Shown here: positions 23,713 through 24,368 of the stretch, piece by piece
Position numbering within the stretch: position 1 is the stretch's first letter
Layout of the letters: every line of letters starts with the position of its first letter
Virus record (IMG/VR): IMGVR_UViG_3300023296_001674
Source: a virus
Direction: 5' to 3' (one strand)
DNA: 25,260 nucleotides
Notes under the pieces: model-generated
Seen by the model: only the letters and a program-made list of their open reading frames with translations
Databases searched by the model: none
Told to the model about the DNA's origin: nothing
Translations under genes and position numbers: made by a program

Positions 23713-23768
23713 TAATTAATGTAACAAAAGGAGAAAGACAATGCTTAGAGGAACACGTTTGATGACTG

Positions 23769-24368
23769 GTGCGGAAGCATCTACATACACGAACACTGTT
23801 GACACACTACGGAGGTGTCTTCATCGATAATAATGTCGAAGAAGTTATAGTTCCGTCGTTATGGGAACAGCAGACATTTATTGATAAAGCAGGAAGTGAA
23901 ATTGTAAATCAGATGTGGGCATTTGAAGATAAGAAAAATCGCCCCGTATGTTTGATACCAGAAGTTACTGGTGTTATACAAGAAATGTGGCGCGATGATT
24001 GGAGTAAATCCAAACCAAAGCCATATTCTATTTTTTATGTGAATCGTTGTTATCGTTATGAACGACCACAGAAGGGTAGATATAGAGAATTCACACAAAT
24101 CGGATTAGAAATTCTTGGTGATACATCAGGGAATGATTACGATATGGCAATTAATTTATTGCAAAAGTGTCTCGATTGTTTTACTATAGATTATAAACTT
24201 ACAGAAACGGTACAACGCGGTTTGGCGTATTATGTTGATGATGGGTTTGAAGTCGAATGTGAGAAGTTGGGCGCACAGAAGCAAATTGCTGGTGGTGGTC
24301 GATACAATGAAGGTATTGGTTGGGCTATCGGCGTTGATAGATTAATATTGGGGATTGATGATGACTAG
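23769..24368 (+). CDS. minimal class II aaRS catalytic core of the HisRS/HisZ type (motif 1 region [16 protein letters not shown], motif 2 [16 protein letters not shown], motif 3 GGGRYNEG), lacking the insertion and anticodon-binding domains
   Basis: Motif recall against E. coli HisS; an upstream ATG at 23741 with SD aaggag opens a different frame (MLRGTRL...), suggesting a frameshift at about 23790. Confidence 0.65.
   Translation: [199 protein letters not shown]

Follow-up and report, generated by a model that had tools for sequence, protein, structure and literature searches.

A conserved +1 frameshift probably ties expression of a minimal phage histidyl-tRNA synthetase to the supply of charged tRNA-His

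Introduction

In a 25,260-nucleotide stretch of viral DNA (IMG/VR record IMGVR_UViG_3300023296_001674; hereafter the window, which is part of a roughly 570-kb genome), a gene resembling histidyl-tRNA synthetase (HisRS) begins in one reading frame and continues in another. An initial annotation, made from the letters of the DNA, left three options for this break: a sequencing error, a pseudogene or a programmed shift. Which of them holds, and what a change of frame would do for a gene of this kind? To our knowledge, self-regulating programmed +1 frameshifting in bacteria and their viruses is represented by essentially one textbook case, prfB. Here, we present comparative evidence that makes it likely that a conserved programmed +1 frameshift expresses a minimal HisRS, probably when charged tRNA-His runs short.

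Results

Two overlapping frames encode a HisRS-like protein

As annotated, the ATG at 23741–23743 is led by a Shine-Dalgarno (SD) core and opens a frame (frame A) that reads MLRGTRLMTGAEASTYTNTVDTLRRCLHR, a 29-codon ORF starting MLRGTR... and closed by TAA at 23828–23830. The HisRS-like body lies in a 199-codon ORF (23769–24368) that is +1 relative to frame A (frame B), and the peptides quoted in the initial annotation are found in the translations. The N-terminus is thus split as described, with an N-terminal segment in frame A and the body in frame B. The frame break amounts to exactly one additional nucleotide and falls at 23819–23824 (CTT CAT) rather than in the region 23780–23800 suspected at first. 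The elements of the gene and its presumed tRNA partner are as follows.

23730–23733, + strand: Shine-Dalgarno core GGAG for zero-frame initiation, with a 7-nt spacer to the ATG (read from the sequence)
23741–23821, + strand: zero-frame coding segment, codons 1–27 (MLRGTRLMTGAEASTYTNTVDTLRRCL), forming the first strand and helix, at the N-terminal end, of the HisRS core
23811–23816, + strand: internal SD-like putative stimulator GGAGGT, of which GGAGG (23811–23815) ends 3 nt before the slippery codon
23819–23821, + strand: slippery P-site codon CTT, with proposed re-pairing of peptidyl-tRNA-Leu on TTC at 23820–23822
23822–23824, + strand: zero-frame His codon CAT in the A site, proposed "hungry" sensor codon
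23825–23830, + strand: zero-frame continuation CGA TAA, where non-shifting ribosomes would end after 29 residues
23823–24368, + strand: +1-frame body, 181 codons and TAG, with motif 1, LIPEVT loop, motif 2, HisA (RGLAYY), HisB (GGGRY) and motif 3
7694–7770, + strand: tRNA-His(GTG) of the phage, whose gene encodes G-1, C73 and CCA; presumed substrate

The zero-frame segment shares homology with the N-termini of in-frame relatives and with residues 6–30 of Thermus thermophilus HisRS. In relatives, the frame-A start is ATG in 62 of 66 loci, with an SD-like core upstream in 51 of the 66. A single copy of the motif GGRGSNNNSTTCAY is present in the window, where 0.1 copies are expected, and the motif stands at the junction in 66 related loci.

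We propose that ribosomes would initiate at the ATG at 23741 and translate 27 codons, leaving peptidyl-tRNA-Leu on CUU (23819–23821) with the His codon CAU (23822–23824) waiting in the A site, and that GGAGG(U), the internal SD-like element 3 nt before CUU, would pair with the tail of 16S rRNA. When His-tRNA(His) arrives promptly, His would be inserted and translation would stop two codons on, or immediately in many relatives. When His-tRNA(His) is scarce, the P-site tRNA would slip from CUU to UUC (from GUU to UUC in relatives with GUU), and +1 reading would go on as AUC GAU.... The outcome would be a 208-residue, His-free minimal HisRS made only on demand, which would charge phage and host tRNA-His and so close a negative feedback loop analogous to that of RF2 and prfB. 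From the sequence features described below, we infer the ribosomal shift itself, the dependence of its rate on His-tRNA(His), and tRNA aminoacylation.

The fused product has the fold and catalytic residues of a minimal HisRS

The product read across the junction is 208 residues long. The Pfam family tRNA-synt_His (PF13393) matched the body alone with E = 3e-14 and the fused product with E = 1.8e-15, both above the gathering score; PF13393 scored 57 bits compared to a cut-off of 25. The fused product aligned without gaps across the junction to residues 6–152 of T. thermophilus HisRS and then to residues 219–299 (E = 1.4e-27); query residue 145 pairs with residue 152 of the 1adj structure, and the alignment resumes at about residue 245 of that chain. 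The jump after residue 152 indicates that the insertion domain (about 70 aa) is absent, and the end of the alignment at residue 299 indicates that the whole anticodon-binding domain is absent, in agreement with the minimal architecture first annotated. The protein terminates 8 residues past motif 3, and an 11-residue loop before this motif is deleted relative to HisRS. Class II motifs 1–3 and the HisRS-specific HisA and HisB motifs are present in alignments to 1adj, 1qe0 and 1htt, and their residues are invariant in the family; AGGGRYNEG, initially taken for motif 3, is the HisB motif, and class II motif 3 lies elsewhere. Every HisRS catalytic and motif-2-loop residue is retained, including the loop ERPQxGRYR. 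In E. coli HisRS, the motif-2 loop reads G-1:C73; by alignment, the residues for His-AMP formation and for this reading are all kept.

The AlphaFold model of the fused product had a pLDDT of 92 and a pTM of 0.88, with a helix at residues 10–29 that crosses the junction at pLDDT 97–99, and its best structural matches in Foldseek were HisRS enzymes (TM-score 0.86–0.87). On this prediction, the two frames together encode one coherent HisRS core. The Pfam match and the alignments to HisRS structures agree on HisRS homology, as the initial annotation had supposed.

Does this core charge tRNA? We think that it probably charges phage and host tRNA-His. In HisRS-tRNA complexes, the insertion domain clamps the acceptor stem; without this domain and the anticodon-binding domain, charging by the minimal HisRS may be weak, partner-dependent or absent. 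Another reading keeps the frameshift switch and makes the protein something other than a charging enzyme, namely a HisZ-like His-binding regulator, a binder or sequesterer of tRNA-His, or a His-AMP-forming ligase for another acceptor. Class II synthetase paralogs of such kinds exist (HisZ, EpmA and the amino acid:carrier-protein ligases), both accessory domains are missing here, and the NCBIfam hisS score lies below the equivalog threshold (142.2 bits compared to a cut-off of 286.75). However, the hisZ profile scored far lower (59.8 bits, cut-off 271.65), and matches in the PDB were much stronger for HisRS (1e-27 to 1e-36) than for HisZ (7e-5 to 5e-10). Together with the full set of HisRS catalytic residues, these scores make the HisZ-like regulator suggested at first less likely. 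The catalytic residues, including the ERPQxGRYR loop, are also invariant across the family, and a scan of ten large window ORFs detected no HisG domain. A tRNA-His gene often adjoins the synthetase-like gene: about 15 of 26 related loci have one no more than 3 kb away, and in Phosso, a cultured Sinorhizobium phage, it lies 275 nt upstream. Moreover, the feedback logic closes only if the product raises His-tRNA(His). Thus, a non-charging role is possible and, in our judgment, doubtful, and we retain a charging enzyme as the preferred reading.

The surroundings of the gene offered no candidate partner, since none of the five flanking proteins in the window recurs in about 110 related loci, and no anticodon-binding or synthetase-related domain was found in the ten other large window ORFs scanned. 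No other synthetase genes are annotated in 42 kb of phage Phosso, and the GenBank annotation of that phage (XYS97181.1) truncates the minimal HisRS gene. An intron-bearing tRNA-Val called at 23536–23712 appeared only under relaxed ARAGORN settings and was judged unreliable.

A shift cassette with an invariant His codon is conserved across relatives

Among 104 related loci, 80, which represent 72 distinct sequences, have the HisRS body in +1 relative to a conserved MLRGTR... ORF, and the remainder have it in frame. The distance from the ATG to the codon for W41 is 121 nt in nearly all shifted loci and 120 nt in all in-frame homologs; the few other values among shifted loci stem from an ungapped anchor estimate. 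Because equal numbers of residues precede W41 in shifted and in-frame proteins, we ruled out a -2 shift. The break occurs at the same codon in the 72 distinct homologous loci, which come from huge-phage contigs and from Phosso, and the cassette at this position consists of an SD-like GGAGG or GGGGG, 3–4 nt, [C/G]TT, and CA[T/C]. The P-site codon is [C/G]TT in 72 of 72 distinct shifted loci (CTT-C in 52, GTT-C in 20), TTCA is present in all 72, and the A-site codon is always CAY (CAT in 56, CAC in 16) and never CAR. A zero-frame stop directly follows CAY in 29 loci, and in L002 and L018 the last base of a frame-B stop is also the first base of the NTT codon. These nearest stops on either side confine the shift to NTT|CAY. 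The initial annotation had missed this site, the prfB-like cassette and the invariant His codon, as well as the lack of His in the product.

Of the 72 shifted loci, 64 carry an SD-like 4-mer at a distance of 3–4 nt before NTT, compared to 1 among the 23 in-frame loci (Fisher p = 6e-14, uncorrected for phylogeny; the sequences are related, so that the counts are not independent events, and the phylogeny is a single neighbor-joining tree without support values). A clear SD-like element is absent from the other 8 shifted loci, and some loci carry a run of five or six G within it. Apart from that single SD-like element, all cassette elements are absent from the in-frame relatives, in which codons and residues vary at the junction position and the overlapping +1 codon encodes F, T, M, V, I, K or L. 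Further matches to the cassette within the loci were three in number, stood in unshifted or non-coding contexts and were attributed to chance. In the window, a hairpin spans the shift site (z = -3.5); RNAalifold over 67 loci yielded no structure common to them (-0.3 kcal/mol, mean z about -1), and we therefore rejected this hairpin as a family-wide 3' stimulator. An Rfam scan of the window returned only tRNAs and no other family at or near the shift site.

The products of the shifted genes are almost devoid of the amino acid whose codon stands at the shift site. Shifted products contain 4 His in 14,367 residues, with 65 of 69 free of His altogether, compared to a His content of 0.51% in in-frame relatives and about 2.9% in other ORFs of the same loci. 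This depletion is about 100-fold. The 208-residue product of the window has no His, and 107 of 116 database matches are likewise His-free.

These observations bear on whether the shift senses anything. A real +1 frameshift could be constitutive, fixing a low level of expression or a ratio of products, with CAY kept for mechanical reasons and no sensing of His-tRNA(His). By codon-anticodon rules, re-pairing of tRNA-Leu(GAG) on UUC would match the C of CAY with a G, and an SD-like element alone promotes +1 slippage at such spacing (PMC12421855). The invariance of CAY may indeed be mechanical in part, in that C strengthens re-pairing on UUC and a +1 codon starting with A may be favored; at the 20 GUU loci, re-pairing on UUC involves only two of three pairs. 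However, the A and the Y are also fixed in 72 of 72 loci, with CAA or CAG never found, even though in-frame homologs vary there. A constitutive shift also leaves the roughly 100-fold depletion of His unexplained, and takes no account of the homology of the product to HisRS. We regard a purely constitutive shift as unlikely, and favor a shift that responds to His-tRNA(His).

The body is under selection and has no start of its own

Wobble positions are the variable ones in frame A over codons 2–24 and in frame B from codon 29 on, and synonymous sites are frozen at codons 24–28. This codon periodicity indicates that purifying selection acts on both sides of the break. Frame B contains no ATG, GTG or TTG before the conserved core in 48 of 72 shifted loci, and where frame-B start codons occur, their positions are not conserved. 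As judged from these sequences, the body has no start of its own, and the gene is readable only through a +1 frameshift.

An arrangement in which a 28–29-residue N-terminal peptide and the body are two polypeptides, made by independent initiation or by termination and reinitiation with no frameshift, fits this pattern poorly. The internal GGAGG could serve as a ribosome-binding site, and the frame-A stop adjoins the junction in the 29 loci noted above. Nevertheless, canonical starts are missing from most loci, the SD-like element lies 3–4 nt from the first open frame-B codon (TTC), which is too near for initiation and right for +1 stimulation, the junction falls in the middle of a predicted helix, and the homologs are single chains. 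We consider two separate polypeptides very improbable.

That transcriptional slippage, or a phage tRNA reading a four-base codon, restores the frame is more improbable still. The runs of five or six G in some loci could favor slippage; the window (CGGAGGTGTCTTCAT) and many other loci, however, have no homopolymer run, and the conserved bases are NTTCAY rather than a run. The window and two related loci also encode tRNAs with abnormal anticodon loops, which might suggest four-base decoding, but these were called with two-base, not four-base, anticodons and are not conserved beside the gene.

Finally, a one-base break near the 5' end of a gene in a single window resembles an indel error, yet 72 distinct loci with the same break and an invariant motif, codon periodicity on both sides of it, and a separate Logan assembly (SRR7528202) of the same DNA with 0 mismatches over 2,492 nt exclude both sequencing or assembly error and a decaying pseudogene, so that only the programmed shift stands among the three options first listed. 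The one-base offset recurs at the same codon in many metagenomes and one cultured phage, Phosso, which carries the same cassette, down to about 50% protein identity. We also considered whether an intact, longer homolog elsewhere would mark this gene as a decayed fragment; this did not hold, and the form of roughly 190–220 aa is itself a large conserved family, with dozens of clusters of minimal HisRS at 50% identity. A search of INPHARED for near-identical phage DNA gave no match.

Discussion

The cassette is closest in design to that of prfB, in which AGGGGG, 3 nt and CTT precede, at codon 26, the codon that its own product reads, and these elements are lost in in-frame homologs (PMC12421855). 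Like prfB, the phage gene starts with a short zero-frame ORF of 25–28 codons followed by a body in the +1 frame; places an internal SD-like element (AGGGGG or GGAGG) 3 nt before its CUU P-site codon; has an A-site codon whose decoding would depend on its own product; and belongs to a family in which about three quarters of members are shifted and in-frame members are without the elements. It differs from prfB in that the A-site codon is a sense codon, CAY (72 of 72), rather than UGA, which makes it a variant and not a strict member of that class; in that the sensed quantity would be His-tRNA(His) and not a release factor; in that the slippery tetranucleotide is [C/G]UUC rather than CUUU, with GUU also used; and in that the cassette sits in a phage synthetase-like gene whose product is purged of the amino acid to be sensed.

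Slippage on a CUU codon before a slow sense codon has precedents. In the yeast Ty1 element, at CUU_AGG_C, the P-site tRNA-Leu on CUU slips +1 while a slow sense codon waits in the A site (PMC5009743), and starvation-induced shifts at hungry codons in E. coli follow the same pattern, as would the phage gene. In contrast to the minimal HisRS gene, Ty1 senses a tRNA-Arg that is constitutively rare and has no SD stimulator, and the E. coli shifts are laboratory or adventitious events. In the phage gene, the hungry codon is cognate to the encoded enzyme, which would make for a specific feedback loop.

As a protein, the minimal HisRS resembles the catalytic domain of bacterial HisS in motifs 1, 2 and 3, the LxPExT loop, HisA (RGLxYY) and HisB (GGGRY), and differs from it in length (208 compared to about 420 aa), in the lack of the insertion and anticodon-binding domains and in the lack of His. 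Like HisZ, which is also paralogous to HisRS, it has no anticodon-binding domain; HisZ, however, has 300–390 aa, retains the insertion region and works with HisG, whereas the minimal HisRS has intact catalytic residues, a lower hisZ than hisS score (60 compared to 142 bits) and no hisG seen among the window ORFs scanned. An N-terminal catalytic fragment of HisRS retains activity. Very small class II cores, including HisRS urzymes, also retain activation chemistry (PMC11602164, PMC3684856). Unlike these engineered minimal forms and urzymes, which are designed fragments or isolated database finds, the minimal HisRS is natural, widespread, under purifying selection and equipped with what appears to be its own regulatory device.

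The his operon attenuator and, in Firmicutes, the T-box ahead of hisS control histidine-related genes according to how much charged tRNA-His is available, as the phage cassette would. Those devices govern whether transcription terminates, via runs of His codons or binding of tRNA to leader RNA; by contrast, the phage cassette would act on the reading frame within the coding sequence, by means of a single His codon. Full-text searches of the open-access literature returned no description of a phage HisRS that is frameshifted or minimal, which is not proof that none exists.

If our reading is correct, this gene would be a second, independently evolved autoregulatory +1 frameshift, with a sense codon at the shift site. 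The RF2 design would thereby prove adaptable to sensing a specific aminoacyl-tRNA, and a mode of synthetase control would join T-boxes, attenuators and operator mimicry. The 14-nt cassette could be a compact, portable histidine-responsive translational switch, and the cultured phage Phosso makes every step directly testable. Current gene callers and GenBank annotations cut such genes short. A His-free HisRS core of roughly 205 aa is also relevant to the debate on minimal and ancestral synthetases. In its fullest form, the proposal is that a hungry His codon in an RF2-style cassette yields a His-free, 208-residue HisRS on demand, the first natural amino-acid-specific frameshift sensor and the smallest natural synthetase that charges tRNA, by a principle that may extend to other phage translation genes; we judge the case for and against this full form to be evenly balanced. 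Such a switch would offer a concrete reason why huge phages pair tRNA arrays with stripped-down synthetases.

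The frame break in related loci

Genes for the mini-HisRS, whose fused product has 208 aa in the window, very probably contain a conserved programmed +1 frameshift. In the window the gene closes a tRNA-rich segment at its 3′ end and comprises an N-terminal ORF in the zero frame opened by its ATG (frame A) and a HisRS-like body in the +1 frame (frame B):

Before ATG 23741: GGAG with a 7-nt spacer, read from the sequence
23741–23830: N-terminal ORF, 29 codons (MLRGTRLMTGAEASTYTNTVDTLRRCLHR), from ATG 23741 to TAA 23828–23830, frame A
23769–24368: HisRS-like body ORF, 199 codons, +1 frame

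The stop codon of the mini-HisRS ORF is TAG (24366–24368). DNA identical to that of the window occurs in an independent SRA-run assembly.

A protein search found more than 1,800 relatives, the best 120 of which were all 166–222 aa long. Part of the aligned relatives had an in-frame N-terminus, M[LI][RK]GTR..G.EA......LR, corresponding to the frame-A peptide of the window, and most of the remainder started with unrelated residues that are the frame-B reading of this segment. For the DNA comparison we used Phosso, a cultured Sinorhizobium phage, together with 29 loci from IMG/VR and 80 from metagenomes; upstream sequence was usable in 104 loci. In 80 of these (72 distinct sequences; shifted loci) the body was in +1 relative to a frame-A N-terminal ORF, and both were in one frame in the other 24 (in-frame loci). 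The break is not damage, which the initial annotation had entertained as a sequencing frameshift or pseudogene, but a conserved feature of 72 distinct sequences. The ATG and the conserved Trp41 codon were 121 nt apart in nearly all shifted loci, with a few other values that stem from the ungapped anchor estimate, and 120 nt apart in in-frame loci; this one extra nucleotide identifies a +1 event, and a −2 shift was rejected.

Positional entropy over codons 2–24 was 1.17, 0.81, and 1.74 bits, with third-position variability in frame A, and from codon 29 on was 1.58, 0.77, and 0.52 bits (frame-A numbering), with third-position variability in frame B. This change in periodicity argues that the N-terminal ORF and the body are both translated and under selection. 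Synonymous sites at codons 24–28 were frozen, and the junction is also constrained at the nucleotide level. In 48 of the 72 shifted loci, frame B contains no ATG, GTG, or TTG from the last stop upstream up to the conserved core, which argues that the body cannot be initiated separately. The family protein P0061 has MLRGTRMLMG in the frame of its body and then out-of-frame residues until the junction, implying an extra indel or sequencing error upstream of the usual shift site in its contig.

In a midpoint-rooted neighbor-joining tree without support values, the shifted state was deep and widespread in the family, and in-frame sequences formed the most distant branches and also occupied several separate nested positions. 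This placement suggests early gain and then repeated loss of the shift, as in prfB, the RF2 gene with an autoregulatory +1 frameshift.

Anatomy of the shift site

All 72 distinct shifted sequences had [C/G]TT CA[T/C] at codons 27–28, with TTCA invariant; the first base of the proposed slippery codon (NTT) was C in 52 and G in 20, and the last base of the following His codon (CAY) was T in 56 and C in 16. Loci L002 and L018 have a frame-B stop whose last base is the first base of NTT, and CAY is followed at once by a frame-A stop in 29 loci; these flanking stops argue that the frame can only change when the ribosome holds NTT and CAY. Of the 72 shifted loci, 64 had an SD-like tract that ends 3–4 nt before NTT (CGG AGG, AGG GGG, or CGG AGC, mostly with T next); of the 23 in-frame loci, which have variable, ordinary codons at the shift-site position, 1 had it. 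The motif GGRGSNNNSTTCAY has a single match in the window (23811–23824; 0.1 expected). It sits at the junction of 66 loci, and the only three matches elsewhere are stray and due to chance. We found no conserved RNA structure at the shift site across 67 related loci. A hairpin predicted at window 23796–23870 (MFE −29.9 kcal/mol, z = −3.5), in which downstream GAAGAAG (Glu-Glu codons) pairs with the shift site and the SD-like element, is not conserved across these loci and was rejected as a family feature.

The shift site of Phosso reads CGA GGT TGT CTT CAT CGA AGC TGA. Its 'histidyl-tRNA synthetase' CDS (XYS97181.1; L110 2977–3567, PV764938) begins at a frame-B ATG, and the frame-A N-terminal ORF (locus 2926–3015) and CTT CAT site are missing from the GenBank annotation. 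The same truncation affects metagenome gene calls for the family.

Identity and probable function of the protein

Several measures identify the body as a HisRS relative. It scored above the gathering thresholds of Pfam tRNA-synt_His and tRNA-synt_2b, its best sequence matches in the PDB were HisRS chains (E = 1e-27; 1e-36 with the family profile), and its best structural matches were HisRS (TM-score 0.86–0.87). In alignments to PDB HisRS, all HisRS-specific elements were retained, GGGRY among them; missing were the ~70-residue insertion domain, a loop of 11 residues ahead of motif 3, and the entire anticodon-binding domain. Because the ORF layout and the HisRS profile and PDB matches agree with it, the initial description of a minimal synthetase core with a displaced N-terminus stands, except for the location of the frame change and the name of one motif. 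In a profile search of 1.8 billion representatives, the mini form matched as a single stretch of about 190–225 aa, and canonical 400–460-aa enzymes matched in two. In the fold predicted with confidence for the fused 208-residue product (pLDDT 92.3, pTM 0.88), a helix of residues 10–29 crosses the junction, so that the N-terminal ORF belongs to the class II core itself and is not a leader peptide.

All histidine- and ATP-binding residues and the motif-2 loop are invariant in the family, and Tyr and Thr stand where E. coli HisRS motif 2 has His. The motif-2 loop of the E. coli enzyme reads G-1:C73. The window tRNA-His has G-1, C73, and CCA; of 26 related loci, about 15 have a tRNA-His no more than 3 kb from the mini-HisRS gene. 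It is directly adjacent in several and 275 nt upstream in Phosso. A tRNA-His substrate appears to be at hand. The conserved catalytic and motif-2-loop residues and nearby tRNA-His favor a minimal HisRS directed at the acceptor stem, and we lean toward a tRNA-charging enzyme. A HisZ-like or other non-canonical role retains appreciable probability, given that both the insertion and anticodon-binding domains are missing, but the body scored 142 bits with NCBIfam hisS versus 60 bits with hisZ (each below its own full-length cut-off). The missing domains are real evidence that tRNA handling would differ from that of canonical HisRS.

tRNA genes and neighbors in the window

The window DNA resembles huge-phage DNA, and contigs of up to 570 kb carry the same protein in the protein search. 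ARAGORN called 27 tRNAs; Rfam added a few that default ARAGORN missed (5916–5988, 20329–20436, and 20576–20667), two of them over-long (108 and 92 nt). Relaxed ARAGORN on 20329–20437 gave a doubtful tRNA-His(gtg) with a 17-nt intron. The stretch at 23536–23712, immediately upstream of the mini-HisRS start and noted together with 24967–25044, has a perfect T-arm (GGGTTCGATTCCC) and acceptor-like 7-bp pairing and was called by neither Rfam nor default ARAGORN. Relaxed ARAGORN proposed that it is a tRNA-Val(aac) containing an intron of 87 nt, a call judged unreliable; a tRNA that is degenerate or interrupted could lie here. Abnormal anticodon loops, reported as two-base 'anticodons', occur in ARAGORN tRNAs at window 3394–3465, L010 2276–2358, and L012 1185–1257 (the latter two in related loci). 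The tRNA at 13766–13843 (ARAGORN label tRNA-Pyl; Rfam tRNA score 57 bits) has a CTA anticodon and is therefore an amber suppressor; recoding of stop codons in this phage is possible. Auxiliary genes between the tRNAs encode a sulfotransferase-like protein, thymidine kinase, fatty-acid desaturase, and dual-specificity phosphatase (14871–15728, 17472–18023, 18080–19063, and 19044–19550).

Histidine at the shift site and in the product

The A-site codon encodes His in every shifted locus, and the gene containing it encodes a HisRS homolog. Read in the +1 frame, the overlapping codon is AYN (Ile or Thr). Its counterpart in in-frame relatives varies (F, T, M, V, I, K, or L), and on this comparison protein constraint does not explain the invariant second-base A and third-base pyrimidine of CAY. 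Predicted frameshift products contained 4 His in 14,367 residues (0.028%), with none in 65 of 69; His content was 0.51% in in-frame relatives and about 2.9% in other ORFs of the same loci. Among database matches, 107 of 116 bodies were His-free. This depletion points the same way, independently, to a sensor role for CAY. An mRNA with its sole His codon on the translated path at the shift site, coding for a product that needs no histidine, would be expected of a device working under limiting His-tRNA(His). For this reason, a constitutive shift without sensing ranks well below a sensor, and it is likely that the shift site senses His-tRNA(His).

Discussion

The prfB cassette consists of AGGGGG, 3 nt, CTT, and then a regulatory codon at position 26, and in-frame prfB homologs lack it (PMC12421855). 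The mini-HisRS site has the same anatomy (SD-like tract, short spacer, NTT, regulatory codon) and is likewise gone from in-frame homologs. Unlike prfB, in which the A-site codon is UGA, read by RF2 itself, the mini-HisRS codon is always His. Peptidyl-tRNA-Leu (or tRNA-Val) on NUU would re-pair on UUC while the A site waits, helped by SD:anti-SD pairing at short spacing.

The machinery, SD-stimulated +1 slippage on CUU, is known. In a comprehensive review of recoding, hungry-codon frameshifting appears only as Ty1-type and starvation cases, and full-text searches of open-access papers turned up no account of a phage HisRS that is frameshifted or minimal. What would be new is that an aaRS gene uses a cognate sense codon as its sensor and encodes a product purged of the same amino acid. 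During infection, mini-HisRS would top up His-tRNA(His), closing a negative feedback loop.
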